From a virus, in IMG/VR virus record IMGVR_UViG_3300035703_000038, positions 1 through 64,000 of that record: 64,000 nucleotides of DNA. The stretch is one strand, 5' to 3'. Below are positions 21,108 through 42,062 of the stretch, one piece after another; the first letter of the stretch is position 1, and every line of letters starts with the position of its first letter. Under the pieces are notes generated by a model that was not told the DNA's origin, did no database searches, and saw only the letters and a program-made list of their open reading frames with translations. Made by a program: the position numbers and the translations under genes.

Positions 21108-22763
21108 ATGTCTAAGATTACTGATGGTAGATCACAATTTAGTTCAATGACATGGTTCATTGGTGTTGTCGAAGATGTTAATGATCCTCTACTGATCAAT
21201 AGAGTCAGAGTTCGTTGCATTGGCTATCATCCTAAGGATAAAGCCCTACTCCCTACTGACAAATTGCCATGGGCTCCATTCATCTCATCTACAGCTATAA
21301 TGTCAGCTCCAATGGTCAACCAGGGCGATTGGGTTGTTGGCTTCTTTATTGATGGAGTCTTGGCTCAGCAGCCTGTTGTCATTGGATCATATATTAGTAT
21401 TCCAGAAACGCAAGCAAATGTTAATGATGGGTTTAATGATCCATCTGGCATCCATCCAAGACTGATTGGCGAAGGGACAAACTCTAGACATGCAAGAGGT
21501 GAAGAAGGCACGCCAGATAGAAATGCTGTAGCCTATACTAAGTCTTCTGCAACTGCAGCTGTACCAGTTGCAGATGGTACAAAGTTTACTGAACCACTCT
21601 CGCAGTTTGATGCAAGGTATCCGTATAACCATGTTCTGGAAACAGACCGTGGCCATGTGTTTGAGTTAGATGATACACCTGATGCAGAAAGAATCCAAGT
21701 GTTCCATAGGAAGGGATCATTTGTTGAATTCCATCCAGATGGCACTGTGGTTCATAGAGCAGTCAATAACAAATATCAGATTACATTAGAAGCAGATAAC
21801 ACATATGTTGGTAGCAACATGAATATGTCTGTTGTTGGCTCTGTTAATATTATTGCTGGTGCAAACACTAACATCTCAACAGTAGGAGATGCCAACTGGA
21901 GAGTTGGCGGTAATATGAACATTGATGTTGGTGGTAACTTCAATGTGGCAGTTGCTGGTGACACTAACATCGATACAGGTGGCACGACGATTGTATACTC
22001 TGAGAATAATGTCGAACTACAAGGCAACCAGGTCCACTTCAATAAGCCAACACCTAAACCACTTGGTGCTGTAAAGGAACCAGAGCTAATTGCTAAATCA
22101 TCTGGTGGTCCAACTGTATTTGAGATTCTGGCTACAGAGGATGATGTTGAGAAGTCTCTGGATGATCTCAATAAGATCAGAACTGATGCTGGCTTACCAC
22201 CAGCAAACAATGCTGTCAAGGAAGGCCAATCATCTACACCAGATGCAGGTGGTACAAATAAAGACATTAAGTGTGGCTCCGTCCAACTAAAAGATGATTA
22301 TAAGCAAGTTAAGATTTCAAAGAACTTCACATTAGCTGATATGACCCAGGGTGGTTCAAGAAAGCTCAAAGCTGCTGGTGGAGTCAAGGAAGAGGACATT
22401 CTATGTAACCTAGTTAAGTTAGCAGAAAATATTCTTGAGCCACTTAAAGCAGCCGGTTTCAAATTTACTATTACATCAGCCTATAGACAGGGTTCTGGCA
22501 AATCAGATCACGATGTTGGTAGAGCTGTAGATATTAAGGTCCATGGTTTAACCAACTTCCAGGCAGCTGAAAAGGTATATGCTGTCGTTGGTGCAATATC
22601 AAAGCAATTTCTTTTAGAGTATACAACAAATGGTGGTTCTGGTTGGATTCACATTGCCTATAATGGTGGCTCTAAGAGCGCTCTACCAATGGCTACATTC
22701 AACAACCATAGCACCTACGCAAGAAACAAGTTTGTAGACCTCAAGCCATCGGCGGTAGCATAA
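21108..22763 (+). CDS. gp5: baseplate spike gp5 with C-terminal M15-type peptidase domain
   Basis: OB-fold WF.GVVED..DP...RVRVR; YPYNHV..T..GH..E.DDTP..ERI; beta-helix repeats; C-terminal ISKNFTL...TSAYR...SDH..GRAVD...WIHI. Confidence 0.92.
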   Translation: MSKITDGRSQFSSMTWFIGVVEDVNDPLLINRVRVRCIGYHPKDKALLPTDKLPWAPFISSTAIMSAPMVNQGDWVVGFFIDGVLAQQPVVIGSYISIPETQANVNDGFNDPSGIHPRLIGEGTNSRHARGEEGTPDRNAVAYTKSSATAAVPVADGTKFTEPLSQFDARYPYNHVLETDRGHVFELDDTPDAERIQVFHRKGSFVEFHPDGTVVHRAVNNKYQITLEADNTYVGSNMNMSVVGSVNIIAGANTNISTVGDANWRVGGNMNIDVGGNFNVAVAGDTNIDTGGTTIVYSENNVELQGNQVHFNKPTPKPLGAVKEPELIAKSSGGPTVFEILATEDDVEKSLDDLNKIRTDAGLPPANNAVKEGQSSTPDAGGTNKDIKCGSVQLKDDYKQVKISKNFTLADMTQGGSRKLKAAGGVKEEDILCNLVKLAENILEPLKAAGFKFTITSAYRQGSGKSDHDVGRAVDIKVHGLTNFQAAEKVYAVVGAISKQFLLEYTTNGGSGWIHIAYNGGSKSALPMATFNNHSTYARNKFVDLKPSAVA

Positions 22764-23540: not shown

Positions 23541-25340
23541 ATGGCTAATGGATTCCTTACAACATCGGAACTAGATTTCCAAAACTACAAATCAAGCCTA
23601 AAAACATTCCTATCTCAGCAGGATGTGTTTAAGGATTACGATTTTGAAGGATCTAACATGGCTGTGTTGCTGGATCTGCTAGCATATAACACCTACATGA
23701 ATGGTGTCTACCTAAACATGGTAGGCAGTGAAATGTTCTTAGACACTTCTCAACTACGCGAATCAATCGTTTCTCATGCTAAAGAGTTAAACTATACACC
23801 ACGTTCTAGAACAGCTGCTACTGCATTTGTTGATATTACAATTACACCATCTGATGCACCTGATTCAATTACAATTCCAAAGTACTACGAGTTGAATGGT
23901 AGAACAGAAGATAACACAACCTACTACTTTACAACTGACGAAGCTGTAGTTATTAGAGCAAACAATGGTGTGTATAAGGCTGCCAATGTTGCTGTATACG
24001 AAGGTAACATTGTAAGAGAAGTATTTGTTGCCAATGCATCAACTCGCTATCTATTACAATCAGCCAATGTTGATATTCAATCAGTAGATGTCACTGTTAA
24101 GGATTCAGCTGCTGCTACAGAAGAAGTCAAGTGGAATAGAGAGACATTCTTGTTTGGATTAGATAACACAGATAATGTGTACTTCATCCAAGGTGCAGAA
24201 GACCACTTGTTTGAGCTTGTATTTGGTAACGGTGATATTGGTAAGTCGTTGGTGGATGGCAATGTTGTTACTGTCAACTATAGAGAAACAAATGGTTTAG
24301 ATGCCAATGGTGTTGAGACATTTACAGCACCTAATGCAATTCAAGGCTATACAAATATTTCTATTGCTACAGTTGTAGCAGCTGCATCAGGCTCCGAACA
24401 TGAGACGGATGAAGAAATCAAATTTAATGCTCCTAGATACTTCCCAACACAAAATAGAGCTGTAACAGTTGAGGATTATATTGCGTTAACAAAGCAAGCA
24501 TTCCCATCTCTAGAAGTTGTTACAGCATATGGTGGTGATGAGGTAGAGCCAAAGCAGTACGGTAAAGTTATCGTTGCTGCTAAGCCAGTTGGTGGCACGA
24601 AGCTCTCTACACCTCTAAAGACTCAGATGTACAACTATCTGAAAGAGAGATCATCTATCTCTATTGACCCAGTTATTGTGGATCCAGAGTACTTCTTTGC
24701 AGAAGTTGTTACTGAAGTTCTATACAATATTAACCTAACAGCGAGATCAGCAAGAGATATCCAGGCTCTTGTGGAAGAAACTATTGCCACATGGGGTAAT
24801 GATAATCTTGAGAAGTTTGGTTCCGATCTAAGATACTCAAAGCTAGTTAGAGCAATCGATGATTGCGAAGATGCTATCATTAGTAATAACACTGAATTGA
24901 GATTGTTCAAACTAATTGAAGTCGATACAGGCATCCCATTCAGAATTTCTCTATCATTTGAAAATGAGCTGAAGCAAGAAATATCCTCGACAAGAAAGAT
25001 TTACGAAGATACAACATCAACAATTGAAACATCACTGTTTACATACAACTTAAACAATGTAGATTATCTTGCCAAGATTAAGGATGACACACAGGGTAAC
25101 CTTGTCCTCGTATCAACTGTTAATGGCCAGGTTCAATTGTTGAAGGATAAGATTGGTACTATTAATTATTTGACTGGTGAACTATCAATTGGTGAGCTAG
25201 TATATGAGGATGTTGGTACCAATGGCGAGCTTGAAATCTACGCAAGAACAAAAAAGCTTGACCTAGAAACAAAAGCCAATAAGATTCTACAAATTGATTC
25301 TGCTCGTCTTGTTGTTACTGTAAATGGTATTAGAGAGTAA
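23541..25340 (+). CDS. gp6: baseplate wedge subunit (gp6)
   Basis: LDF...K..L..FL..Q..F.DYDFEGS....LLD.LAYNT; QNRAVT..DY. Confidence 0.95.
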   Translation: MANGFLTTSELDFQNYKSSLKTFLSQQDVFKDYDFEGSNMAVLLDLLAYNTYMNGVYLNMVGSEMFLDTSQLRESIVSHAKELNYTPRSRTAATAFVDITITPSDAPDSITIPKYYELNGRTEDNTTYYFTTDEAVVIRANNGVYKAANVAVYEGNIVREVFVANASTRYLLQSANVDIQSVDVTVKDSAAATEEVKWNRETFLFGLDNTDNVYFIQGAEDHLFELVFGNGDIGKSLVDGNVVTVNYRETNGLDANGVETFTAPNAIQGYTNISIATVVAAASGSEHETDEEIKFNAPRYFPTQNRAVTVEDYIALTKQAFPSLEVVTAYGGDEVEPKQYGKVIVAAKPVGGTKLSTPLKTQMYNYLKERSSISIDPVIVDPEYFFAEVVTEVLYNINLTARSARDIQALVEETIATWGNDNLEKFGSDLRYSKLVRAIDDCEDAIISNNTELRLFKLIEVDTGIPFRISLSFENELKQEISSTRKIYEDTTSTIETSLFTYNLNNVDYLAKIKDDTQGNLVLVSTVNGQVQLLKDKIGTINYLTGELSIGELVYEDVGTNGELEIYARTKKLDLETKANKILQIDSARLVVTVNGIRE

Positions 25341-27334
25341 TGAGACAACTAGAAAGTTACATTTCACCATTTATTGCTGATCAGTTTCCTTCAATCTATA
25401 AGGAAGAAGGTCCTCTATTCATTGCTTTCGTCAAGGCATACTTTGAGTGGCTAGAATCAAATGGTCAAGTTGTAAATGATTCAAGACGCTTGCTCGAATA
25501 TAGAGATATTGATAAGACAGTAGATGAATTTGTCAACCAATTTAAAAAGAAGTATATGTTCCCTATCCCAGAAGATATTGCTGGTGATAAGAGACTACTA
25601 CAGAAGCACATCAAAGAAGTATACGGATCAAAGGGTACAGAACGTGGCTTGAAGCTTCTGTTCCAGCTACTGTTTGGTGATTCAATCAGTGTCTATAGAC
25701 CTGGCGATGATGTTTTCAGATTATCAGATGGTGATTGGAGTAGAGACATCTACCTCGAGGTTGCCTATAAGCCATTCAATTCACTATTTGTTGGTGAGTT
25801 TATCAGAGGACGTATCTCTGGTGCCCGTGCCTATGTTGCAAGCTTCCAGACAAAATATGTTAATAATAAAAACATTAACATCTTCTATTTAACTGATGTT
25901 CAAGGCAACTTCCTATACGATGAAGTAGTTCTTATTGATGAAAATAGATTGGCACCAGGCGTTGCCCCAGCTGTATCTGCTGTCAACTCACCAAAAATTA
26001 TTGGCTCACTAACAGAAGTAGATGTAACAAATAGATCATCTCCATTTGGATACACAGTTGGTGAACAACTTGAAGTCCAAGGCTCAGGCAAAGGTGGTAA
26101 GGTTGTTGTTACGAGTTTGCAAGAGCTAGATGGTACTGTATCATTTTTCCTAAAGGATGGTGGTTCAGGTTATACAGTCAACACAACAGTATTCACAATA
26201 TTTGGTCCAGTCACAGGTGTTGTGGTAGAGGCTGGTGGCTCAGGATACGCAAATTCTGACTACCTAATATTTTCTAATGGCACATCACTTGGATATGCCA
26301 ATCTTGTAACGAATAGCTCTGGTGGTATTCTCAATAATACTGCAACTGGCCAGACATACTTCTCAGTCACCAATGGTGGTAACGGATTCCAAACAGCACA
26401 GACATCCGTTGTAGTTACCATTGCCAACTCAACTGGTGGTGTATCAGGTGGTGTTGGTGCCAATCTAGTACCTACAATTGCTGGTGGTGGCGATGGCGCT
26501 GCTCTGAGAATTGGTGGGCTATCAGATCTTAAAAGTATATTTGGTTCCATTGTAAAAATTAATGCTATTGGTCAAACTACAACATATCTTCCTACAGCAA
26601 ACAGTTATGATGATATGGTTATTGGTACACCATCCTACCCAACAGGCACAGGCTATGGTTTGTCATCCAACGTTGCTGCTGGCTTTGATACAATCTTGGC
26701 CGATGCATTGGATTACAAAATCTACGAAGTTGGCACAATATCTAAAATCTTTACTGTCAATCCAGGTTCTGATTATACAACAAACTTGACTGTTACTGCT
26801 GTGGATACATTAATTAGTCAGTTTAAATTTTCCGACCAAGAACATCCTGCCGGTAGAGGACCAACTGGTAGTGGTAGACTTGGTAATAATGCCATCGTTA
26901 CGGCTGTTACAGGATTTGGTTCAGATGCACTTGGTTCTGTTAAAGTAATTGACTCAGGCTTAGGTTATGAGCAAAATGAAGAAGTAACTCTTGTATCTCT
27001 TTCAAATACAAACCTTGTTACCTCTGGTACAGCTCTACTTTCAAAGCAGGGTCAAGGTCAAGGTGAGTTCAAATCAACAAGAGGGTTTTTGAGCTCAGAT
27101 AAGTACATACATGACAGTTTTTATTATCAAGACTATTCGTACGAAGTTAGATCGTCAATTGTGTTTAATAAGTACAGTGATCTGTTAAGAAAATTATGGC
27201 ATCCAGCAGGTGTAGAGAAATTTGGTCGCGTGTTGGTAAGTAGTGAAGTAACAGTTGCCACTCCAGATATCAATACACAAGGATATGTTGGTGATGGTAG
27301 CACAACAACGTTTGGCATTCCTGGTGGGGCATGA
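25340..27334 (+). CDS. gp7: baseplate wedge initiator (gp7-like)
   Basis: QFP.......P.F..F..AY..W; Y.SKGT...L..LF; DS.YYQDYSY; HPAG...FG; follows gp6. Confidence 0.8.
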   Translation: MRQLESYISPFIADQFPSIYKEEGPLFIAFVKAYFEWLESNGQVVNDSRRLLEYRDIDKTVDEFVNQFKKKYMFPIPEDIAGDKRLLQKHIKEVYGSKGTERGLKLLFQLLFGDSISVYRPGDDVFRLSDGDWSRDIYLEVAYKPFNSLFVGEFIRGRISGARAYVASFQTKYVNNKNINIFYLTDVQGNFLYDEVVLIDENRLAPGVAPAVSAVNSPKIIGSLTEVDVTNRSSPFGYTVGEQLEVQGSGKGGKVVVTSLQELDGTVSFFLKDGGSGYTVNTTVFTIFGPVTGVVVEAGGSGYANSDYLIFSNGTSLGYANLVTNSSGGILNNTATGQTYFSVTNGGNGFQTAQTSVVVTIANSTGGVSGGVGANLVPTIAGGGDGAALRIGGLSDLKSIFGSIVKINAIGQTTTYLPTANSYDDMVIGTPSYPTGTGYGLSSNVAAGFDTILADALDYKIYEVGTISKIFTVNPGSDYTTNLTVTAVDTLISQFKFSDQEHPAGRGPTGSGRLGNNAIVTAVTGFGSDALGSVKVIDSGLGYEQNEEVTLVSLSNTNLVTSGTALLSKQGQGQGEFKSTRGFLSSDKYIHDSFYYQDYSYEVRSSIVFNKYSDLLRKLWHPAGVEKFGRVLVSSEVTVATPDINTQGYVGDGSTTTFGIPGGA

Positions 27335-30300
27335 GCAATATAACGGTTAAAGTAAATGGAGTACTTCAGGTGCTTGGCACCGATTACACCATTTCTGGTA
27401 ACAATGTTGTATTTACGACAGCACCCGCTGCCAATAGTAAAATTGAAATTCGTAAAGAAGCAGAAAGAACTGCAATTGAAACAAGCTTCAAGATCCAGCA
27501 GGTATTCTTAACTCAGCTTGTAACTTCCTATGCAACAGAAACAACTGTTACAACTACATTTGCTACAGCAACTGGCCAGGTCACACTCACAGCTTATGTT
27601 ACTGATGTAGATACATCTAGAACAACCAACTCAGTATTTGGCACTAGCAAATCAACATCAACTAGCTACCCAACAGTATTTAATACTGCATATGGAACAA
27701 CAAAGAACACAGCTTCTCAGTATGTAACGGCTTACGAATCTGGATTCCAAACAGTGACTGTATTTGATACAGATATCAATACGGCTGTTGACACAACAAG
27801 AACAACCAATACAACATTCCCAACCTCTTTGGCTACTGCCACATCACAATCAACAGTTACGGTTGTTAACTTTAACACAACATACAGTACAGACCAGACA
27901 ACAACCACTGCATTTGAGACAGCTTATAGCACGGTATTTAATACAACAACTGCATACGAAACAAATAGAACAACTGTCTTTGATACAAACCTATTAACAG
28001 CAACATCTAGACAGACAGATACATCTAAGCAAACATCTAGCGTATATGACACTACATATTCGTCTTTCTATGCTACAAGTACTACATTTGACACAGTTAT
28101 CAATACAGCTGTCAACACATCCAAGTCAACAGATACAAGCCAGGCTACAAGTAAGTCAACAAATACGACTACAACATTTGTAACTATTTTTGAAACAGCT
28201 GGCTCAACATCAAGAAACACAGCCACTGTATATGACACAGTGTTTGATACAAACAGGTTGACTGGTACAACAATCAATACAACATTTGATACTATTATTG
28301 GCACAAGTAAGGCCACAAGCACATCTAAATCAACAACATCTGTATTCAACACATCAACAACATTTGATACAGTGTTTGATACTGGCTATGATACATCCAA
28401 GTCAACTACATCAGTATTCAATACAACAACGTCATTCAATACTGTATTTGAAACAAACTTTGGCACTACGACTGCTTTTGATACAAACAGAGCTACAGAC
28501 ACATCAAAAAATACTGCTACTAGTAAAAGTACAACAACAGCCTTCAATACAATTACATCTTATGATGTAACTACAACATTTGTTACTGCCTATAATGCTG
28601 CAACTGTTTATATTACGACACAGGGTGCTGACACTGCTAGATCAACAAGCAGAATAACAGATACAAATAGATCCACAACAACTGCTTTTGATACTACAAC
28701 AACTTATGGTACAACATTCTATTTTATTACCAGCAAGCAGACAGATACTAGCAGGCAAACAGATACAAGCAAGAGCACATCAACTGTATTCAATACTATA
28801 ACAGCATACGATACGTTAGTTGCAACTGCTGTTACTAAGAGTACTACAACATCTTTCAATACAATAACAACGTTCAATACAACGTATGATTCCACATACA
28901 ACACAACTTATTCAACAGACTCAGGAACTACACAGCAGACAGACACATACAATAGTGGATCTGGTAACGTAACTGCTCCAGCTGGTGCCACATCCGTAAC
29001 TATCAAGGTTTGGGGTGGCGGTGGTGGCGGTGGCTGTGGTGAAACGCGTAGTGCCGGCGATCTTGGCGGCGGTGGTGGTGGCTCAGGTGCCTATGTTGAG
29101 AAGACAGTTTCTGTAACTGGTGGCTCAACATCATTTTCATATTCTGTTGGTTTAGGTGGTGGTGGATTTGGTAACCCTCCAGGTGCCAATGATGACGATT
29201 CGTTTGCAACAGGTGATGCTGGTGGACAGTCAACTGTAACTGGTACTGGCGTCAACATGGTTGCTCCAGCAGGTAATGGTGGCCAGTGTGCTTATTATGA
29301 TTCATTTGGTGATATTGTAACTGGCGGTGTAGGTGGATTTGGTGGCTTTGGCGCTAGTGGCGGTGATACAAACACGGATGGTAATGCAGGTAACCAGGGT
29401 GGTATAAACTTTGGTGGCCAAGGTGGTAGTGCTCCAAGTGGTGGCACTGGTGGTGCTGGTGGTACAGGTACTGGTGATGGTTCAACTGGTGGCGCTCCAG
29501 GTGCCGGTGGTGGCGGTGGCGGTGAGAATGATGGTAGTGGTGGTAATGGTGCTGATGGTCGCGTTGAGTTTGTTTGGACTATCTCCACAACAACAATCAC
29601 AACAAGATCAACAAGTGTATCGACATCAAAGTCTACAACACTATCAACTGGCACATCTGCATCTACAACAACTGCTTATAGTGTTGACACAGCCTACCCA
29701 ACAAGTAGAACAACATCCACATCTAAGTCAACAACTACTGTATTCCAGACCGCAACTACATTCCAGACAATAACATCATTCAATACTGGTCTTGGTGGTA
29801 CAACAAGCAGGGCTACTGGCACAAGCAGATCAACAGTATCTGTATTCCAGACAACATCGACATATGATACCTCATATGGTACTACATTCTACTTCAACAC
29901 GAGTAAGGGCACCACATTCTACTTTAATACAAGTAGAGCAACTACTGTAGCCCAAGCAACAGGTACAAGTAGAGGCACAACAACTGTATATGATACAAGC
30001 ACAATATTCCAAACATCCACTATATTTGGTACAAGTGCTGCAACCACAACAGTGTTTAATACAGCTAGAGGCACAAGTGCTGTAACAGCAACATCAAAAT
30101 TAACAACAACAGCCTATAATACTGTTGTTGCCACATCTCTTGCAACCAGCAGAACAACAGCAACATCTAAATCAACTACAACTGTATTTGATACTACAAC
30201 TGCATTTGACACAGCTTATGCTACAAGTAGATCAACTGTTAAGAATACAACAACTACATTTGAAACAAACATCAGCACAAATAAGCAGACAGCTACAACA

Positions 30301-33300
30301 TTTACTACAACATTTAATACTGCAGCTGCCACAGGTTTAGCAACATCAACAACTACAACCTATTCAACTGTTTATTCTACAACAACAACTTATAACACAG
30401 GTTACGATACTGCATTTGCAACAAATCGTAATACCGACACATCTGTAATTACAGTTAAATCGACAAGTAAACAAACAGCCTCTGTATTTCAGACTGCTAC
30501 CACATTTGATACAAGCACTGCATTTGAGACTTCTAGATCAACAGTATTTGACACTCTAATTGCTACTAGCACGTCGCGCGATACAGTTATTGGTACTGCT
30601 AGAAGCACACTATCAGCATTTGAAACAACTATTGGTACATCTTCAAATAAGTCAACAACAACTGTCTATAATACAACAACAATCTTTGACACATCAAGAC
30701 AGACAACATCTATATTTGTAACTGGCTATAACACTGCATACGCCACAAACAAGCTAACCAACACGAGTGTGTTCACTACAGGCGTAACAACAATAATTAC
30801 ATCTACGGCATTTGATACTGTGTATGAAACTAACAGAAACACAGCAAGAAACACCACAACTGCCTATGATACAAATTTTGACACAACAACTGCATTTGAA
30901 ACAGTTGTTGATGAATCTAGAAACACAGCCACTGTATTCAATACAAATACATCCTCATCTCTACAAAGAAATACAGATACAGCAATTCTGACTGAATATA
31001 GAATTCTTGCTACACAAACCGTGTATAGCTCAACATACCAGACATTCTATGAAACTATTGCTGGTGTGCTAACATCTGTTGATACAAATGTTACGACAAG
31101 TAAGGTAACAGATACTGCTTATGTTGCTCAGAATAGAAACACGTTACGTGACACAGCATATCAAACAACAAACCCTACTGTAGTTCAGACAAGCACTCTA
31201 GGTAACACAAGTGCCACTGTCATTTTTAACACGACATTTGTAACATATGACACAGCCTTTGCAACTAGCAAGTCAACTACGTCTGTATTCAGCACATCAT
31301 ATGAAACTGTAGCTGGTACATCCAAGTCAACATCGACTGTTTACGATAGTGTATTTGATACAACAAAACAAACAACAATTACGACAGATACAGCTTCACC
31401 AACATCTAGATTGACAGCTTATGGTACAGGCACAAGCAGAACAACAACATCCGCTTTCTCTACAGTCATAACAACGACATATGGAACAGGTTATAATACA
31501 TCTAAGACAACCGATTCTGTCTATGTGACAGCATTCTTAACTGTATCAACATTTCAAACATCACCTCTTACTTCAGTATCTACATTACTGTCTAAGACAA
31601 CAGAGACATCAACGTTCTTTGCTACATCACAAGCAACAGATAAGAATACACTAACAAGCAGATCAACAGTTTATGTAAGTGGTGTATCGACAACTTCTCG
31701 TACAACAGAGTTTGCTACAGCAACATCAATCAATACAAGCTATGATACAAGAAGAGGTACTGATACTACAACTCAATATGAAGGTACGACTGTATTTGCT
31801 ACTGTATATGATACAAATCTAAATGTTGGCACAACAAGAATAACAGATGTTGCTACCTCAACAGCATACAACACTGTTATTAATACAGCAAGAGATACAG
31901 AAGTTGCTACAAGTAAGAATACAACAACAGCATTTGATACTGATACAGCAATACAAACATCATTTGATACAACAATTGCTACACAGTCAAGTTCTAGCAC
32001 TGCCTATGCCACAAACATTAGTACAAGTAAGTCAACAAGCTCAGTATTTGATACAACTTATGAAGTCAATACATCAACTAGCAAGTCAACGACTACTGCT
32101 TATCAAACAATATTCCAAACATCTAGAAATACAAGCACTGCTTATCAAACACTATTCAATACAGTGTATAGGGATACTGCTCTAGATACTGATGTAACCA
32201 CAACTACCGCTAAGGCAACAACTGGTGTAACAGGCACATCCACTATATCTGCAACATCAAGGACAACGACATATATTACAGAAGCACTGACAGATACGAC
32301 GTATCTAATGTCGAGCTCATATGCCACATCTACTGTATTTGAAACAGTTGTAGGATCTTATTACTTGACAGTGTTTGATGGTACGACAACATACGACACC
32401 AACTCTGGTGCTGGTACAATGAAGTCTACTTCTAAAACAACCAGCCTATCAAGAGCTACATCAACATACTTTGAATCAGCTTATGTAACATTGTTCCAAT
32501 CAACAACAGTGTTTGCAACTGATATCACAACAACAGGTATTAAGTCAACAGCAAGCAGATACCAAACAGACCTAGGCCTAGGTACTCTAAGAGACACAAT
32601 TGTCTTTACAAATGTCTACACCTCAACAAGTAAGACAACTGCAACAGGTACTGGCTTCAATACAACAACGACATATGATACTGGTATCCAAGCTGTTACA
32701 GATGTGCTGACTGCCGAAACAAAGAATACATCATATGATACTCTAACAAGATATGATACAGTTATCAACACAACAACATCATATCTATCATCATACTCAA
32801 CAATTGTTGATACGTCAAGAACTACATTAACTTCGACTGCCTTTGATACTTCTAGGGCAACTGCAACCATCTTCCAGACTGACTCTGGTGCTGGTACATT
32901 GCGTAACACATCTTTAAGTACAACAACAGCATTTGAAACTGTGTTTGTAATTACTCAATCATCTAAGTCAACTACAACAACATTCAATACAATTTCAAGA
33001 TATGACACAGCTCTTGATACAGATGTTTCTACAGCTACAAGCAAATCGACAGTTAGTGCTTATACAAGATTTGAAGGTGGTAGAACAACATCAACCGTAT
33101 TCAATACAGGGTATGAAACATTACCATTAGCCATCACAGTTGTTGGTACAACAAGATCAACAGCAACAGTTATTGTTACTGCATACCAAACATCATCTGC
33201 TACAGCTTATGATACAACTAGAGCAACAAACAAAACAACAACTACTGCATTTGAAACAACATACGGTACCGGTATCTTAACGGCAAGAGACACTTATACG

Positions 33301-34158
33301 TCTACAACAACTTCAACTGCATTCTTAACAGAATCAGCAAGATTGACCAATACTGTTTATAAGAACACTGCATTTGATACAGATGTGACAACTGCCACAA
33401 TTACTCAATTTGCTACAGAAACATCAAGAAACACAGCTACTGTTATCTCAACTGATACAACAATATCTACAACAACGGCTGGTGGTGCTACAACATCAAC
33501 TTCGTTCCAAACTGCAACACTAACATCCACATCATTCTATACAACTACTATAACGATTTCTGACTTGTTAACATCTAAGACAACAACAACAGGCTATGAG
33601 ACATCTTCATATATTGATACAACAATAGCAACTGTTTACCAAACATTAACACAAGTAGCCACATTAATTAATACAGTTGGCGTAACTCAGTTTGACACAT
33701 CTAGAACGACAGATGTTGAAATTGACTTCTCTGTTAGAGCAACAAGCTTCCAAACATTGACAGTTGTAGATACGTCAACAGCCTATGTCACCGGTAGCAG
33801 AATCACTCAGCGTTCTACAACAACATTGAGAAATACTGATACAGTTGAATATGTTAGAGATACAACAAGAACATCTGATCCAAATACAGTATACCAGACT
33901 AGCACAGTGTTCCTAACAACTACAGGCTCTGGTCTAGATACAGATAAGGTAACATCAAGACAGACTGACACAGAAAGATCAACATCATTTGTAACGGCCT
34001 TTGATACAACTACAACTTACCAGACAGATTCTGGTGCTGGTACAATGAAGTCAACATCCAAGGCTACAGCAACATCCAGAGCAACTGACCAGCAAGTTCA
34101 GACAAGCTATGATACTGCTATTCAGACAACATATGAAACTGTTTATATAAATAATTAA
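27331..34158 (+). CDS. giant Thr-rich self-complementary fibre protein with an internal glycine-rich head (possibly a C-terminal extension of gp7)
   Basis: 2275-aa ORF built from T-x-[FY]-x, T-x-[KR]-x and T-x units; Gly-rich domain at residues ~530-752; located between gp7 and gp8. Confidence 0.85.
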   Translation: MSNITVKVNGVLQVLGTDYTISGNNVVFTTAPAANSKIEIRKEAERTAIETSFKIQQVFLTQLVTSYATETTVTTTFATATGQVTLTAYVTDVDTSRTTNSVFGTSKSTSTSYPTVFNTAYGTTKNTASQYVTAYESGFQTVTVFDTDINTAVDTTRTTNTTFPTSLATATSQSTVTVVNFNTTYSTDQTTTTAFETAYSTVFNTTTAYETNRTTVFDTNLLTATSRQTDTSKQTSSVYDTTYSSFYATSTTFDTVINTAVNTSKSTDTSQATSKSTNTTTTFVTIFETAGSTSRNTATVYDTVFDTNRLTGTTINTTFDTIIGTSKATSTSKSTTSVFNTSTTFDTVFDTGYDTSKSTTSVFNTTTSFNTVFETNFGTTTAFDTNRATDTSKNTATSKSTTTAFNTITSYDVTTTFVTAYNAATVYITTQGADTARSTSRITDTNRSTTTAFDTTTTYGTTFYFITSKQTDTSRQTDTSKSTSTVFNTITAYDTLVATAVTKSTTTSFNTITTFNTTYDSTYNTTYSTDSGTTQQTDTYNSGSGNVTAPAGATSVTIKVWGGGGGGGCGETRSAGDLGGGGGGSGAYVEKTVSVTGGSTSFSYSVGLGGGGFGNPPGANDDDSFATGDAGGQSTVTGTGVNMVAPAGNGGQCAYYDSFGDIVTGGVGGFGGFGASGGDTNTDGNAGNQGGINFGGQGGSAPSGGTGGAGGTGTGDGSTGGAPGAGGGGGGENDGSGGNGADGRVEFVWTISTTTITTRSTSVSTSKSTTLSTGTSASTTTAYSVDTAYPTSRTTSTSKSTTTVFQTATTFQTITSFNTGLGGTTSRATGTSRSTVSVFQTTSTYDTSYGTTFYFNTSKGTTFYFNTSRATTVAQATGTSRGTTTVYDTSTIFQTSTIFGTSAATTTVFNTARGTSAVTATSKLTTTAYNTVVATSLATSRTTATSKSTTTVFDTTTAFDTAYATSRSTVKNTTTTFETNISTNKQTATTFTTTFNTAAATGLATSTTTTYSTVYSTTTTYNTGYDTAFATNRNTDTSVITVKSTSKQTASVFQTATTFDTSTAFETSRSTVFDTLIATSTSRDTVIGTARSTLSAFETTIGTSSNKSTTTVYNTTTIFDTSRQTTSIFVTGYNTAYATNKLTNTSVFTTGVTTIITSTAFDTVYETNRNTARNTTTAYDTNFDTTTAFETVVDESRNTATVFNTNTSSSLQRNTDTAILTEYRILATQTVYSSTYQTFYETIAGVLTSVDTNVTTSKVTDTAYVAQNRNTLRDTAYQTTNPTVVQTSTLGNTSATVIFNTTFVTYDTAFATSKSTTSVFSTSYETVAGTSKSTSTVYDSVFDTTKQTTITTDTASPTSRLTAYGTGTSRTTTSAFSTVITTTYGTGYNTSKTTDSVYVTAFLTVSTFQTSPLTSVSTLLSKTTETSTFFATSQATDKNTLTSRSTVYVSGVSTTSRTTEFATATSINTSYDTRRGTDTTTQYEGTTVFATVYDTNLNVGTTRITDVATSTAYNTVINTARDTEVATSKNTTTAFDTDTAIQTSFDTTIATQSSSSTAYATNISTSKSTSSVFDTTYEVNTSTSKSTTTAYQTIFQTSRNTSTAYQTLFNTVYRDTALDTDVTTTTAKATTGVTGTSTISATSRTTTYITEALTDTTYLMSSSYATSTVFETVVGSYYLTVFDGTTTYDTNSGAGTMKSTSKTTSLSRATSTYFESAYVTLFQSTTVFATDITTTGIKSTASRYQTDLGLGTLRDTIVFTNVYTSTSKTTATGTGFNTTTTYDTGIQAVTDVLTAETKNTSYDTLTRYDTVINTTTSYLSSYSTIVDTSRTTLTSTAFDTSRATATIFQTDSGAGTLRNTSLSTTTAFETVFVITQSSKSTTTTFNTISRYDTALDTDVSTATSKSTVSAYTRFEGGRTTSTVFNTGYETLPLAITVVGTTRSTATVIVTAYQTSSATAYDTTRATNKTTTTAFETTYGTGILTARDTYTSTTTSTAFLTESARLTNTVYKNTAFDTDVTTATITQFATETSRNTATVISTDTTISTTTAGGATTSTSFQTATLTSTSFYTTTITISDLLTSKTTTTGYETSSYIDTTIATVYQTLTQVATLINTVGVTQFDTSRTTDVEIDFSVRATSFQTLTVVDTSTAYVTGSRITQRSTTTLRNTDTVEYVRDTTRTSDPNTVYQTSTVFLTTTGSGLDTDKVTSRQTDTERSTSFVTAFDTTTTYQTDSGAGTMKSTSKATATSRATDQQVQTSYDTAIQTTYETVYINN
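34146..34153 (+). promoter_or_regulatory. T4 late promoter
   Basis: TATAAATA upstream of gp8. Confidence 0.8.
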
Positions 34159-34180: not shown

Positions 34181-36229
34181 ATGTTAACAAGATTCAAGCG
34201 CAATATTGTTGATTGTTTTATAGGCTCAGTGAGTAATACGCTGAGCGTTGAGCTGTCTGGTACTGTAACTGTCAATAGCTCTTGCACAACTGTAACAGGC
34301 ACAGGAACCAATTTCACATCTGATTTTGGTCTAGAAGATAGAATCTATATTGGTTCGCAATCTAGACAAGTAGTTTCAATTGCCAACGATACATTAATGA
34401 CAGTTGGCACACCATTTAGTACAAATGCAGCAGCCAACGTTTACCAAAAGGGTAAATTAGATAATAATGGTTATTATGTTTTTGCAGCCAGACAATCACC
34501 ATATCTAAATGACGATGTTGCCGCAAATACAATTGATAATGATTATGAAGGACAAACATTCCTACATGATGAATTGATGTTTGGTAGGAAGATTACTGAT
34601 ACTGATGTTGTACCAGTAGTTTCAAAAAAGAGCTGGCAGTCAAATACAATCTATAGCATTTACGATGATAAAGATACATCATTAATAGAAAAGAATTTCT
34701 ATGTTATTACATTTGAAAATAAAGTATACAAATGTATCTACAATAACAATGGCTCATCTTCTATAATTGAGCCAAGCCACACGCAGACAGGATTCCCTCC
34801 AGCTGAATCGGATGGATATAGATGGTTATATCTTTACCAGATAACAAATGATCAGCTATTAACATTTGGCACGGATAATTACATTCCTGTATTTGAAAAT
34901 ACAGATGTTAAGAAAGCTGCCATTGATGGTTCTATTTTTAATATCGCTGTAGAAGCTAATGGTTCTGGTTATCCAGCACATAGTGGTGTTATTGGTACGA
35001 CAAGCAATACGCAAATTGTAAAAATTAGCGATAATGCATCAACAGCTAATGATTTCTTTAGCAACTGTGCTATTACAATTACTAACGATTCAACAAACTA
35101 TACGTATGTAAAGGAAATCAGAGATTATGTTTCCAATAATAGTGGTAAGTTTGTTGTTGTAAAAATTCCATTTGCTAATGGACAGATTGCTAACAATAAT
35201 CCATATTCGATTGCACCATATATTAAGATTGAATCAAAGACTGGTTCAAACTGCGTAGCATATGCTGTCATGCAGAATGTTTCAAATACAACATTTGTTG
35301 GTAGCATAGAGTCAGTTGAGATTCTAAGTCCAGGCAGAAATTATAGACAAGCCAATGTAACAGTACAGACATCTGTTGGCTTTGGTTCTGGCGGTGAGGT
35401 TAGAGCAATCATATCACCACCTGGTGGCCATGGGCATGATGTTAAGAATGAGCTATACTGCCAAGCCGTTGGTATTGGTGTTGAGTTCTCAAACTCAGCA
35501 TTGCTAAATTTCTCATCTGATGTAGAATTTAGAACAGTTGGTTTGATCAAGAACCCATTATCAGCTAACACATTAATAACACCAGATGGTGTGGTTAATC
35601 TTGTTGCTAACAGTTTAAATGTTACTGGTTCCCAAACTAAGTTCACCCAGCAAGTAAACATTGGCGATTATTTAATCTATGCAGATGAGGAGAAAGAAGT
35701 TGCTGACATTACTAGCGACACTGCTCTCACATTAAAATCACCATTCTCGTATACAGTAGTTGCTGAATCATACGACGTTAGAAAGAGATATTCAAACTCA
35801 TATTTCAATCAAACTGTGTATGTTACAGCATCCAACACTACACCAACTCTACTCCAGGTTGGAGAGTTTGTGGTTGGTTCAGATGGCGCTGGTGGCGGCT
35901 CTCAGTCGAGGGGTAAGGTTGCATTTGCCAACACTTCTAAGATAGTTCTAACAGGACTAAATAAGAGTGAGACTCGTGGCTCAGCCAATGCAAAGATATT
36001 TGTAAATGACACACTAGTTGAGGGTGTTGGGTATGATGTTACATCAACTGCAACACCATTCATCGCTGCGTCAGGAGCTAAATACTCTAAGGTAGCAGGA
36101 AATAACTACATCACAAGAATACCTGATGTCAAATTATATTCTGGTGAGATTCTATATGTTCAGAATCTACTACCAGTACAAAGATCAAATACAACTAATG
36201 AACAAATTAGATTGATTATTAAGTTCTAG
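34181..36229 (+). CDS. gp8: baseplate wedge subunit (gp8-like) with inserted beta repeats
   Basis: W.....Y..YD; NFYV......VYKC..N; DGY.W.YLY; PPGGHG; YSGEILY..N..PV.R....EQI.LII.F. Confidence 0.88.
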   Translation: MLTRFKRNIVDCFIGSVSNTLSVELSGTVTVNSSCTTVTGTGTNFTSDFGLEDRIYIGSQSRQVVSIANDTLMTVGTPFSTNAAANVYQKGKLDNNGYYVFAARQSPYLNDDVAANTIDNDYEGQTFLHDELMFGRKITDTDVVPVVSKKSWQSNTIYSIYDDKDTSLIEKNFYVITFENKVYKCIYNNNGSSSIIEPSHTQTGFPPAESDGYRWLYLYQITNDQLLTFGTDNYIPVFENTDVKKAAIDGSIFNIAVEANGSGYPAHSGVIGTTSNTQIVKISDNASTANDFFSNCAITITNDSTNYTYVKEIRDYVSNNSGKFVVVKIPFANGQIANNNPYSIAPYIKIESKTGSNCVAYAVMQNVSNTTFVGSIESVEILSPGRNYRQANVTVQTSVGFGSGGEVRAIISPPGGHGHDVKNELYCQAVGIGVEFSNSALLNFSSDVEFRTVGLIKNPLSANTLITPDGVVNLVANSLNVTGSQTKFTQQVNIGDYLIYADEEKEVADITSDTALTLKSPFSYTVVAESYDVRKRYSNSYFNQTVYVTASNTTPTLLQVGEFVVGSDGAGGGSQSRGKVAFANTSKIVLTGLNKSETRGSANAKIFVNDTLVEGVGYDVTSTATPFIAASGAKYSKVAGNNYITRIPDVKLYSGEILYVQNLLPVQRSNTTNEQIRLIIKF

Positions 36230-36240
36230 AGGTTCAAAGA

Positions 36241-39200
36241 ATGTCGCTTGATATCGCAAATACAGTTCTAAATGCTTCTCCATACTTCGATGATTTCAAC
36301 GAGGATAAGAAGTTTCATAGAATTTTGTTCAGACCTTCTGTTGCCGTTCAAGCTCGTGAACTAAATCAACTTCAGTCTATTCTTCAGAACCAAATTGAGA
36401 GATTTGGTAACCACATCTTCAAAGATGGTTCAATTATTAAGGGTTGTGGTCTATCATTCCTTGCTCCAAATACAGCTCAAGCAATCGAGTTTGTTTCGAT
36501 TAATGACCAGTTCAACACAAACACATCGCTATCATCAACCAACACACAGTTTGCCAATGCAATTGTTGTTGGTAATACATCAGGCGTTGTTGCTCAGATT
36601 ATTTCAGCAAGAGAAGGCTTCAAAGCATCTTCTACACCAGCTAGATTCTTTATTAAGTATACCCAGCCAGCTGCAAATGGCCAAAGAACATTCTCAGAAG
36701 GTGAAGTTCTAAACATCTACCAGCCTGGTAGTCATTCATTGATAAAGTTATTCTTACAGTTAATACAGCTGTAACAGTAAACACAACAAACTTTCCAAAT
36801 GGCTCTAAGATTATTAACGACGTATCCCAAGCTCGTGGTTTTGTTGTCAATGCATATTCAAATACACTTGGTGACTTTGTTGAACTAAGAAATGTCAGAA
36901 AGACATTTGTTGCTGGTGACACAGTTACACTATCAACAGATGCAGGTATAACAGCAAGCATTCTAGATGTTGATTATATCAGCTTTGCCAACTCATTTAT
37001 TGACTCCGTAAATGTATTACCATCCAATGGCGTCCTTTATGGTAACTCATTGGGCTTTGCCTACGGTGTCACAGTATCACCTGGTGTAGTATTCCATAAG
37101 GGCCACTTCATTAAGGTTAGCGAACATACAACAATTGTTAATGAAAATAATGGTGATCCAGCTGGTAAGGTTTTATACTTCAACACCGACGAAGTTGTAG
37201 TTAAGGAAACTGACGATGCATCATTGTTTGATAATGCTTCTGGCACAACAAACATCAACGCACCTGGCGCTCATAGATTAAAACTTGTATCAACACTTAT
37301 TGCAAGAGATAAGGTTGGTGCCAACGCTATTTCAAATACCGATATTGCATTCCCAATTGTTGAGTTTGGAAACAATGGTCCAATCTTCCAAAGAACAAAC
37401 ACAGAGTATAACCTACTAGGTGAAGAGCTAGCTAAGAGAACATTTGAAGAGTCCGGCCACTATATTGTCAAACCATTCAACCTAACAACCAAGCCTCATG
37501 AAAATGATACAACAAGATTGTTCTATGATGTAAGCCAAGGTTTAGCTTATGTCAAGGGTCAAAGAAGAGAATTCATCAATAGACAAAATGTTCCAGGCAG
37601 AAGAGGTGTTGATACAATCAGCCGTGACCAGGCTATCACATCAATGTCATTTGGCAACTACACCCTTATAAATGATTTGAAGGGTTATTTCCCTGTAGAT
37701 CAGTCAAGCGAAGTTGTATTCTATAATGCTGAGCAAAATGCTGTATCTGGTACTGCATACAGAGAACCAGGTTCAACAGCAAACGGCACAATCGTTGGCT
37801 ATGCTAATATTAGAGCAATTAAGTACGTTGACTCAACAACAGCATTGAAGGGTGACCCTTCTGCAGTCTATAGATTATACATTTTTAACTACAGACCAGT
37901 TGGTACCTATACATTCCAAGATGCAAGATCAGTTGTTTACCACTCAGGTGTTGCAAACTCTACAAATGCAGAAGCATTTGCCGATCTAATTCTAAACACA
38001 AATAATGTCCCTACAATCTTTGAACAATCATTAACGCCACTACTATTCAGTTTGAATACGACAGCTGTTAAGGATCTGAGAAATGCTAATGGTGTCTACG
38101 ATACAAACTATTTCTATACAGCTGCTAATACTGCTGCAACTCTCTCAGAAGCAGGTGTAATTACATTTGGTATTGGCGCCCAGCAAGGTATTCTAGGATT
38201 TAGTAACGGCTCCTCAATTGAGGAAGCCTTGGTGGATGTGGTAGTTGAAGCAAACTGTACTACAAATAACTTAGTAGGTACAATCAGTTGTAACAGCACT
38301 AGTACGACTGTAACAGGATCATCTACAACATTCACGCAAGACTTTGTTGTTGGTGAACATATTACTCTACCTTTCCATAGCCAGACTAGAAGAATCACAG
38401 CAATTGCTAGTGACACTTCGTTGACAGTCAATTCAGTATTCTCTACTAGTGTCGCCAACAACTACCAAAGAACACACGTTAAGGGTTCAATTATTGCACT
38501 AAACCCAACAAGTGGTACAAAGAGAGTACTTGATCCATCTGAAGATCAAGAGTCAGCAACAATTAACTTATCATCAGTATATAATGGTCAGACAGCAGTT
38601 ACAGTTAGATTCTACGCATACAATAATGATGGTGCTACTCTAAAGAAAGAAATCACAAGAAATTCTCTTGTAATTATCAACACTGCCAACAACATTGCTA
38701 ATAGCGCTACTGGCCCATGGAATTTGGGTGTACCAGATGTATTGAAGATTACAGGCGTATATGTTGGTACAAACTCATCAAACTTTATTCTAGATGTCAA
38801 CAAGGCATCAGAGTTTGTTCTTGATAATGGTCAGCGCGACACACATTACGACCATGCTAAGATTTCATTATCACCTGAATCTTCAATGAACCTTGCTAAC
38901 AACTGGCTACTAGTTCAGTTTGATTGCTTTACAGTAAACTCATCTGTTGGCCAAGGGTTCTTCTCTGTAGAATCATATCCAGTAAATGATCAGTTGAATG
39001 CAAACGTACAGACATATATCAAGACATACGAGATTCCAAGCTACACTGTAACAGTTGGCAATACCCCAGTCAAGTATGATCTAAGAGATGTTGTTGACTT
39101 TAGACCATATAAGTCTAACACAGCTGCAGTCACTACTTCATTCACTGCTGCAACTATTAACCCTTCAGCAACAAATACATTCCAGACCAAGACTACAGAA

Positions 39201-42062
39201 TATAATCCATGGCCTGGCTCTACAATGCAAACAAACTTCACCTACTACCTAGGTAGAAAGGATAAGTTGGTATTGACAGCCGAAGGACAGTTTAAGGTAG
39301 AAGAAGGTATTCCAGATATTCTACCAAGAGCACTTCCAAATAGTCCTGAAGTGTTAACAATTGCTGATATTACAGTCCCTCCATATCCTTCATTGACAGA
39401 TACTGAGAAGTTGTTCCTACAAAGAACTGACTATAACATCAAGTATGATATTCTATCTCATAAGCGCTTCACAATGAAGGACATTTCGGTTCTTGAGAAG
39501 AGAATTGAGAGACTGGAATATTATACAACACTGAATATGCTAGAGAATCTAGCACTACAAACAACGATTGCTGATAGTAATGGCGACCAAAGATTCCAGA
39601 ATGGCTTCTTTGTTGATCCATTCAACAATCACGTGTTTGGTAGAACAGATGATGCTGAGTATAAGATTGCTATCGATGAAAAGAATGGCCTACTAAGACC
39701 AGCATTTGACCCAGAAGTTATTGAGATGGAGTTTGATACAGACACATCATCATACGCTAATGTTCAGATCACAGGCTCAATGGTTACACTTCCATATACA
39801 GAAGAAGTATTCATCGACCAACCATACGCTTCCGATGTTGTAAACATTTCAGGTTCACCTATCAAGTGGGTTGGTACAATTGATGTAAGACCTAAGGTTG
39901 CCAACGATATTGAATACTTGGCAAGAGCAGTTGCAGTTGGTAGTACATCATCTGTAGCTCAGGCTTATGAAAACATGAAGTCTGTAACACCAGGTACAGC
40001 TCAGTATGGCTGGTGGAGAGATAATGTTCAGACATCTGCCGACTTCAATCCAGGTGCCGCAGCCAATGATGCAAGAGACAGAACAACAATCTCTGCTCAA
40101 TCTGGCACATCTGTAACAACAGAAACAGGTGAGAAGGTTACAGCTGGTATTATCTACTACTCGAAGGAAAGAGTATATGGATTCAAGGCAGTTGGCCTAA
40201 AGCCAAATACTATCCACTACTTGTTTGTCAATGATAATGAAAACTCACAGCTAGCAGCATTGGGTGAGCTAAGCGCAAATCCAAATGCTTCTGATGAAGG
40301 CTTTGTTACAAGAACGACAACATGGGGTACACCACTCGAGTCTGACTCACGCGGTGAAATTATTGGTAAGTTTATTGCACCAGCATTCTCATTGAAGTCT
40401 GGTACACATAGACTATCACTAAGAGATAGAAGAACAAGAGCAACTGGCTTAGATACATCATATGCTGATGCATACTTTGTGTTGGATGTTACAACACAAG
40501 ATCCACCAGACATCGTCGAGCCACCTCCTCCTCCTCCTCCACCACCACCTCCTCCTCCGCCACCAGGCAACACAACTCCACGTCCAAACTTGGATGCAAG
40601 ATTTGTTGTAACTGGCAACACTACGATTTATGCTGAGGCAAATTCAACCGGTGGAATCCCAAGTGGTACATTTACGCTAACATTCACAAATGATAGCACC
40701 ATCTCAAATGGTACCATCACAGGATATAATTGGAACTTTGGTGCAATACCAGGATCTGTAACGTGTTCATTGAATACAGCTGCAAATGCTGGTCCACATA
40801 CAGTTAACATTACGCCAATTAATTCTGTTCAAGATATTAATGTATCGTTGATTGTAACAGACAACACATCTCAGACGAAGGAACAAGTACAAACAATTAG
40901 ACTAACTAAGCTACCTAAGGCTTCTCCACCATCCGCAAATGTTGTTCCAGGTAACACAAGCCCAGAAGGTATGAAGTTAACATTGTTTGCTTCAGTACTA
41001 AACCAGTTGTCAGACTCACTCGTATATAACGATCCAGCTCTAAGACCTGACTTCTACACAAACTGGAACCCAGGTATTTCTGGATTTACTGATGCACAAT
41101 TGTTGTCGCTAACATATGATACTGCAGCATCTCTTGGTACTAACACAGCACTAAGAATTATTGCTAAGCCAGAATATGATTATGAGGGTAATGTTGTTTG
41201 GACAATCACAAGTTCATCTGGTCCAGCTCTAACAAACTACTCATACGCTAACGTAACACAAATGTATGTTACAACTAGCGGTTCTGGTTATTCAAACAAT
41301 GATACAATCAAGCTATCAAATGGCCAGGTAGATGCTACTGCAACATTGTTTACTGATTCATCTGGTGGTATCATCTATGTCAACTTGACATCAAGAGGTA
41401 ACTTCTCTAATGGTGCAGTTGCCAATACTGAATCATTTACAGCAAATAGCACTGTAAACAATAACTTCACAATGAATAGAAGTGTTTCAAGCAACACAGA
41501 TATTCAGGTTGCAGTTAATGGTCTACTACAAACACCAACAACTGATTATGGTGTAAGTGGCTCAACATTGACATTCCCAACTAACCTAACAGTATCACCA
41601 AGTCCAGACATTGTACAGGTGACACACCTTGCATCGTTGACACCTGGTACTGGTTTGTTGGATGCAAGTCAAATTAGAGTCCAGGTTGCCAACTCAACTG
41701 CTCCTGCCAATAGCACAAACGGTAATACATCAGGTGGTAGTGGAGCTCAGTTTGCGATCATCCTTGGTGGAACAGCAAACTCCATTTCATCATCACCTAA
41801 GGTAACAAACGACACATTCACGTTGTACTCAAGCAGTACATCGAATGCTGAGTCTACTGTTACAGTCCGCGCCCAGTTCTACCTAGCTAATGGCTACGCA
41901 AATGTTGTTGGTACAGCAGAGCAGTCATTCACACTAAGAAACACTGCTGCAGTAACGCCAACTGCTCCAAACCCAGGTGGTGGTTCAACAGGTGTTGGAT
42001 CTGGTAGCAATGGTGGTGGAGCTGGTAAGCGTGACGAAAGAGTTAATGTGAAGAGAAATTAA
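36241..42062 (+). CDS. large virion structural protein (DUF4815/VrlC-like), interrupted by a -1 frameshift at ~36731-36770
   Basis: SPYFDDF...K.F.RILF.P...VQARELNQLQSILQNQIE.FG start; the -1 frame is open from 36732 into ORF 37050..42062 (APGAHRL, LA.RT.EESG.Y, RI..LEYYT.L, NGFFVD.F). Confidence 0.8.

Follow-up and report, generated by a model that had tools for sequence, protein, structure and literature searches.

The central sheet of Borrelia OspA is a single-layer beta-sheet without a hydrophobic core. The G5-E repeats of SasG from Staphylococcus aureus form a monomeric, long and thin beta rod that is held by cross-strand side-chain contacts and a high beta propensity, again with no buried core (PMC4458895). 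In phage T4, the needle of gp37 (domains D10-D11, PDB 2XGF) forms a long, all-beta rod at the end of the tail that faces the host, in which the chain runs to the tip and back, so that domain D10 is made up of residues 811-881 plus 1010-1026; gp37 is an intertwined homotrimer with seven His-coordinated iron ions (PMC6957217) and requires the chaperones gp38 and gp57A. Each T4 tail carries 6 copies of the baseplate wedge protein gp7, which is monomeric (PMC3004832, Table 1). Here we compare these systems with a 2275-residue, Thr-rich, baseplate-associated fibre protein (P0001) encoded in a 64,000-nucleotide stretch of viral DNA (IMG/VR virus record IMGVR_UViG_3300035703_000038, positions 1 to 64,000; hereafter the window). 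Its open reading frame (ORF) lies at 27331..34158 on the plus strand, as do all of the parts of the protein described below. The protein contains two long self-complementary segments, stem 1 and stem 2, and we focus on stem 2, which probably folds as a single very long beta hairpin.

Translation of the ORF places residue 1304 at base 31240, where a sequence-only reading of the window had begun a second long self-complementary stem closed by a tight turn. We scanned every anti-diagonal i+j of the protein with a local score that rewards T/S opposite T/S (+1) and K/R opposite an aromatic residue (+4), and penalizes like opposite like (-3). The second peak expected from that reading is present at i+j=2905; with a score of 52 it is exceeded only by stem 1 at i+j=1286 (score 196), with the remaining anti-diagonals at 34 or below and all parallel diagonals at 30 or below. 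In an unbiased scan of anti-diagonals, i+j=2905 also holds the most K/R:F/Y(/W) pairs of the whole protein, with 16 against a mean of 1.6 (standard deviation (sd) 1.6) and a runner-up of 10. The register joins two ungapped arms of 143 residues each, an outgoing arm at residues 1306-1448 (31246..31674) and a returning arm at residues 1457-1599 (31699..32127), through a scored loop of eight residues, VSGVSTTS, at residues 1449-1456 (31675..31698). These limits lie within two residues of those proposed earlier (~1304-1449 and ~1455-1600), and gapped alignment of the arms does not change the ungapped result.

Shuffles of residues 1296-1610, whether by residue, by dipeptide block, or by unit order, gave top scores of 22-25, and nine other large ORFs in the window gave mirror scores of at most 18. 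Considering only whether each position on the Thr face is T or non-T, the two arms of stem 2 agree at 64 of 72 positions, compared with a mean of 35.6 for unit-order shuffles (sd 6.0, maximum 58 in 5000) and 9-53 for shifted registers. The earlier claim that two-residue units face two-residue units is therefore upheld independently of residue identity; as the agreement is far above that of the unit-order shuffles, it is the aperiodic order of 2- and 4-residue units that is mirrored. The DNA of stem 2 contains a single 13-nt inverted repeat within 918 nt, which rules out a DNA inverted repeat as the cause of the mirror; moreover, reverse-complemented Thr codons do not encode Thr. A parallel or solenoid repeat was rejected because the parallel diagonals that it predicts are absent, and lateral pairing between stem 1 and stem 2 was rejected because cross-stem scores do not exceed 26, which is the level of the background.

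Within the register, stem 2 has 16 K/R:F/Y pairs, running from Y1448:R1457 beside the turn out to Y1306:R1599, together with 34 T:T pairs and one like:like pair (F1310:F1595). The register at the turn would permit pairing up to 2-4 residues from the centre. Thr lies at even positions throughout the outgoing arm and at odd positions throughout the returning arm, with zero slips of phase along either. Pro accounts for at most 1.4% of the residues, T, S, V, I, F, and Y together make up ~60-70% of each arm, and the composition of all four arms of the two stems includes no His (0.0%) and no Cys. Both faces of stem 2 are mostly polar by sequence, and the stem may lack a buried hydrophobic core.

Searching viral contigs with the gp7-like protein encoded upstream and with the stem 2 alignment identified eight full-length orthologues (IMG/VR loci L003, L008, L013, L014, L016, L019, L028, and L036), each directly 3' of a gp7-like ORF; a pattern search of viral contigs with the single stem 2 sequence gave no match, whereas the alignment-based search succeeded. 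Every one of the eight has stem 1 as its highest-scoring anti-diagonal, with stem 2, at the homologous position, ranking second. The stem 2 regions form a gap-free alignment of 306 columns, with 46-51% identity to the window protein, and the scored arms of the orthologues span 139, 141, 79, 81, 139, 103, 139, and 143 residues. The scored loop has eight residues in eight of the nine proteins and four in L036, and the turn of the orthologues follows the pattern S-[G/D/N]-x-x-T. Column identity is highest (0.76-0.82) within ~60 residues of the tip, falls to 0.56-0.67 in the middle, and is ~0.7 at the base.

The pairing is conserved along with the sequence. Summed over seven proteins, stem 2 has 109 K/R:F/Y pairs at register 0 and no more than 40 at any shift. 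Across the nine aligned rows, every sequence is complementary at six sites, and two sites swap orientation (of the type F:K to K:F); there are 169 mispaired cells, compared with 310-432 in shifted registers. Over the nine proteins, the observed and expected counts are 47 and 5 for F:R, 41 and 6 for F:K, 23 and 3 for K:Y, 20 and 2 for R:Y, 267 and 125 for T:T, and 52 and 14 for D:S. The K/R:F/Y types are thus enriched ~7- to 10-fold, T:T 2-fold, and D:S and N:S 2- to 3.6-fold. These statistics confirm the proposal that the two stems share one pairing code, and they reveal preferences on both faces, as would be predicted for residues that sit side by side in a sheet.

Stem 1 follows the same design on a larger scale. 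Its ungapped 456-residue arms (residues 79-534, 27565..28932, and residues 752-1207, 29584..30951) flank a Gly-rich head at the apex (residues 535-751, 28933..29583; PF21722, E 2.1e-07; 35.5% Gly). Among the orthologues, arm length varies between 283 and 491 residues, yet in each protein the two arms are of equal length and align without gaps, around an apex of 31 to 226 residues. That the arms change length together and stay matched requires selection on pairing. Register 0 of stem 1 holds 499 complementary pairs and 18 clashes; no other even register has fewer than 594 clashes. The apex is exchangeable, being a Gly-rich head of ~215-226 residues in the window protein, L008, L016, and L036, and an unrelated segment of 31-123 residues elsewhere. 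Only stem 1 shows this covariation of arm length, as stem 2 is free of indels.

The mirror register, the code, and their conservation are direct observations, and the only arrangement we found that explains an ungapped mirror of aperiodic unit order is antiparallel, in-register pairing of the arms. We propose that residues 1306-1599 probably fold back within one chain as a single antiparallel beta ribbon of two strands that bears no head and keeps its length across the orthologues, likely with a single copy per wedge. Each arm would be an unbroken strand of even-length units only (T-x and T-x-X-x), which would give it one face where Thr alternates with K/R or F/Y and another of small polar or aliphatic residues. 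At i+j=2905, Thr would lie opposite Thr and K/R opposite F/Y, as cation-pi or aliphatic-aromatic cross-strand pairs; an aromatic would at times face I, V, or L, and on the other face D and N would lie opposite S. With an aperiodic order of units just one register is free of mismatches, so the fold would be fixed much as base pairing fixes an RNA stem. At ~0.33 nm per residue pair, ~147 pairs would give a ribbon of 47-49 nm, and stem 2 may stand free as a rigid spike of 45-50 nm.

The sequence-only reading had suggested predicting the structure of residues 1300-1605 in isolation. Without an alignment, AlphaFold2 (AF2) returned a predicted local distance difference test (pLDDT) score of 31 and no strands. 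With the nine-row alignment it placed long strands symmetrically about local residue 153, the predicted turn (pairs E139-151/E154-166, E59-86/E218-251, and E10-47/E257-297), with a pLDDT of 29.8. The strand layout lends weak support to the hairpin. Complex prediction with the two arms of stem 2 as separate chains, run without controls, scored 0.01 and weighs on neither side. A profile of the nine orthologues searched against all PDB chains found a chance match only (E 0.36, a spider-silk domain), the ESM Atlas yielded unnamed viral clusters and no named family, and our literature search found no description of Thr-rich mirror hairpins; no counterpart of this fibre design was found among published or solved structures.

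Relatives outside this group connect the stems to gp7. Only four more relatives (P0002-P0005) came out of a word-indexed search and an exhaustive profile search, and all four combine a gp7 N-terminal domain with a Thr-rich tail; the profile search, of 1.84 billion representatives, returned three matches and was probably limited by composition correction. P0002, P0004, and P0005 have mirror stems of 151, 252, and 237 residues per arm (scores 83-98), and that of P0003 is weak (score 33). The cultured Stenotrophomonas phage DLP6 (PMC5349666) has the same arrangement in its gp7 (AMQ65900.1, 1288 aa; KU682439.2, L001:15777-19643), where an ungapped mirror joins arms 707-932 and 1017-1242, of 226 residues each, around an apex of 84 aa with a score of 123; the DLP6 genome paper does not mention it. 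A short Thr-rich stem with an inserted domain of ~130 aa lies ahead of this main hairpin. More generally, a non-repeat domain of ~110-130 aa, with the motifs NGxF...W...WD...LWDNISVK, stands between two short Thr-rich segments after the gp7 part (~590-700 in P0002, P0004, and P0005; ~575-705 in DLP6 gp7), and looks like another head on a short stem. The 188-kb IMG/VR contig that carries L028 also encodes a second Thr-rich ORF of ~1320 aa (L035:2806-6771), which is essentially one hairpin, with ungapped arms of 625 residues each (52-676 and 698-1322), a loop of 21, and a score of 219. Partial relatives occur in the same gene context at L033, L034, and L037. Neither tblastn of the whole 2275-residue protein against cultured phages, where the low-complexity filter was the cause, nor megablast of the neighbouring genes gave a match. 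In T4, the review of the phage mentions no Thr-rich repeats in gp7, a protein that we did not scan for them. In P0002-P0005 and DLP6 the hairpins form the C-terminal part of gp7, and given that T4 gp7 is monomeric, the hairpin is most simply the product of a single chain.

Other origins of the mirror were weighed against this single-chain hairpin. It is scarcely credible that the pattern lacks structural meaning and arises by chance or as a by-product of low-complexity periodic repeats, DNA inverted repeats, or tandem duplication. The protein is highly repetitive, and a perfect T-x-K-x-T-x-F-x array would yield mirror peaks every 8 residues; instead there is one sharp peak with no periodic series, unit-order shuffles that keep composition and units reach at most 23-25, and stem 2 is kept at ~50% identity in eight orthologues. 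Together with the diagonal scan and the inverted-repeat count, these results led us to reject such an origin. The arms might alternatively pair antiparallel in the same register between molecules, as a swapped dimer or as a lattice linking wedges in which stem 2 is a cross-brace. Sequence complementarity alone fits pairing within and between chains equally well, and a structural brace might well be headless, with its length and tip conserved as they are in stem 2. We nevertheless consider this quite unlikely, as a swapped dimer has no need of the conserved eight-residue turn, with G, D, or N at its start, that occupies the very centre of the mirror in eight of the nine proteins (four residues in L036) and that a hairpin does need; local concentration also strongly favours the partner on the same chain.

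A trimeric fold-back needle resembling the tip of gp37, in which three chains run out and back as an intertwined six-stranded rod and the mirror is one of two strand interfaces, deserves more attention. Nearly all solved phage fibres are trimers, the topology of the gp37 needle shows that a chain can fold back in this way, with its early and late residues adjacent (for stem 2, this adjacency is read from the sequence register only), and the fibre protein of the window is a separate ORF whose copy number need not match that of gp7. Yet stem 2 has none of the HxH iron sites of the gp37 needle, His and Cys being absent from every arm, and there is no second consistent register to act as an interface between chains. 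Both faces are polar with no obvious core, the sequence matches no solved chain, and relatives fuse the hairpin to gp7, a link that points to a single chain. The arms also differ from the needle in their length (143 residues, and 456 in stem 1) and in their residue-by-residue pairing code. On balance we regard a trimeric needle as unlikely. In physical terms, the precedent for a two-faced polar ribbon is offered by the single-layer rods of SasG and OspA, although these are non-viral chains of small domains built from three-stranded sheets and local hairpins, none of them a single hairpin with partners up to 293 positions apart, and neither Pfam nor the PDB profile search found G5 or E domain homology in the 2275-residue protein.

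Several points weigh against an intramolecular ribbon. To our knowledge, no solved structure contains a free two-stranded ribbon that is this long and lacks a hydrophobic core. Neither AF2 run gave a confident model, the PDB profile search found no experimental structure of any relative, and the stoichiometry of gp7 is known for T4 and not for the phage of the window. Stem 2 follows the pairing code less strictly than stem 1 does, with 13 K/R/F/Y residues of the window protein lacking a complementary partner, mostly aromatics opposite I, V, or L, and in L013 and L014 the clean stem 2 mirror spans just ~80 residues per arm. Finally, the absence of indels from stem 2 in the nine proteins leaves conservation and a few swaps, with no covariation of arm length, and the summed pair counts are not independent events because the orthologues are related.

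The remainder of the protein has no further long stem. An N-terminal non-repeat domain (residues 1-78, 27331..27564), 62-70% identical in the orthologues, is presumed to be the attachment domain. The sequence-only reading had also seen short hairpins in the 98-residue linker between the stems (residues 1208-1305, 30952..31245) and in the Thr-rich C-terminal third (residues 1600-2275, 32128..34155). By ungapped score these could not be told apart from shuffles, with a best of 9 in the linker (shuffles up to 13) and 17 in the C-terminal third (shuffles up to 23); by this measure, therefore, the protein has exactly two long stems. The C-terminal third is 32% T, like the stems, and contains recurrent T-[DN]-S-G-A-G-T-[ML]-[KR] loops; its best parallel match is between 1686-1730 and 2208-2252. 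Pfam matches the whole protein only to Gly_rich_2, at residues 543-749. The lack of complementarity between stem 1 and stem 2 suggests that they extend as separate arms from a shared hub made up of the N-terminal domain together with the linker and the C-terminal third, and a branched protein is a reasonable topological reading of two independent stems.

ORF calls and profile matches identify the window as a module of tail and baseplate genes from an uncultured T4-like myovirus, whose closest cultured relative, as judged by gp6, is phage DLP6 (47.6% identity). The module begins with a gp5-like hub/lysozyme (21108-22763), followed by gp6 (23541-25340) and a gp7-like baseplate wedge ORF homologous to the N-terminal part of gp7 (25340..27334, plus strand; PF23786, phrog_17744). 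The fibre ORF lies between this gene and gp8 (34181-36229), beyond which are DUF4815/VrlC-like proteins; the profile of one of these is split between a 177-aa ORF (36241-36774, profile start) and a 1670-aa ORF (37050-42062, the remainder). Between 30001 and 34000 the GC skew is -0.21 to -0.24 and the AT skew +0.19 to +0.20; this coincides with the Thr-rich part of the ORF, rich in ACN codons, and so reflects protein composition rather than a signal for replication. The stop of the gp7-like ORF overlaps the start of the fibre ORF as ATGA (27328-27334), preceded by GGTGGGG. This overlap is kept in six orthologous loci (L003, L008, L013, L014, L016, and L019, as GTGA in L019), with GGTGG(A/G)G upstream, and its conservation indicates that the split between gp7 and the fibre is real. 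Pfam finds no PF23786 Baseplate_wedge match in the 2275-residue protein, the match lying in the upstream ORF. From this arrangement, the fibre protein and the gp7-like wedge protein are probably made in step by translational coupling, and the fibre would probably sit on the wedge protein, with one copy per wedge.

On such a baseplate the two stems may have different roles. Stem 1, with its variable length, would present an exchangeable head that likely binds a receptor; stem 2, headless and of fixed length, may serve as a strut or probe, with its conserved tip touching a partner, likewise conserved, on the virion or at the cell surface. We tentatively extend this to a wider model, for which the case is close to evenly balanced but falls somewhat short, in which the T:T and K/R:F/Y code, written on aperiodic units, folds a monomeric chain into several independent ribbons, with a 150-nm arm bearing an exchangeable head, a 48-nm headless arm, one hub, and six such proteins per baseplate. 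This would constitute a new class of fibrous fold whose length evolves by paired insertions.

If the hairpin reading of stem 2 is correct, it would represent a fibrous architecture for which we found no solved or published counterpart, in which one chain sets a rod of tens to hundreds of nanometres through a readable pairing code. Stem 2 would then act as an internal replicate of that code within the same chain, and would show that one chain can hold several independent stems. Designed beta-ribbon nanomaterials could also take the code as a natural template. The gp7 link and the occurrence of the hairpin in phage DLP6 make the idea directly testable by electron cryomicroscopy and biophysics, and its confirmation would change the annotation of baseplate-attached fibres in the large cyanophage-like branch of the T4-type phages.

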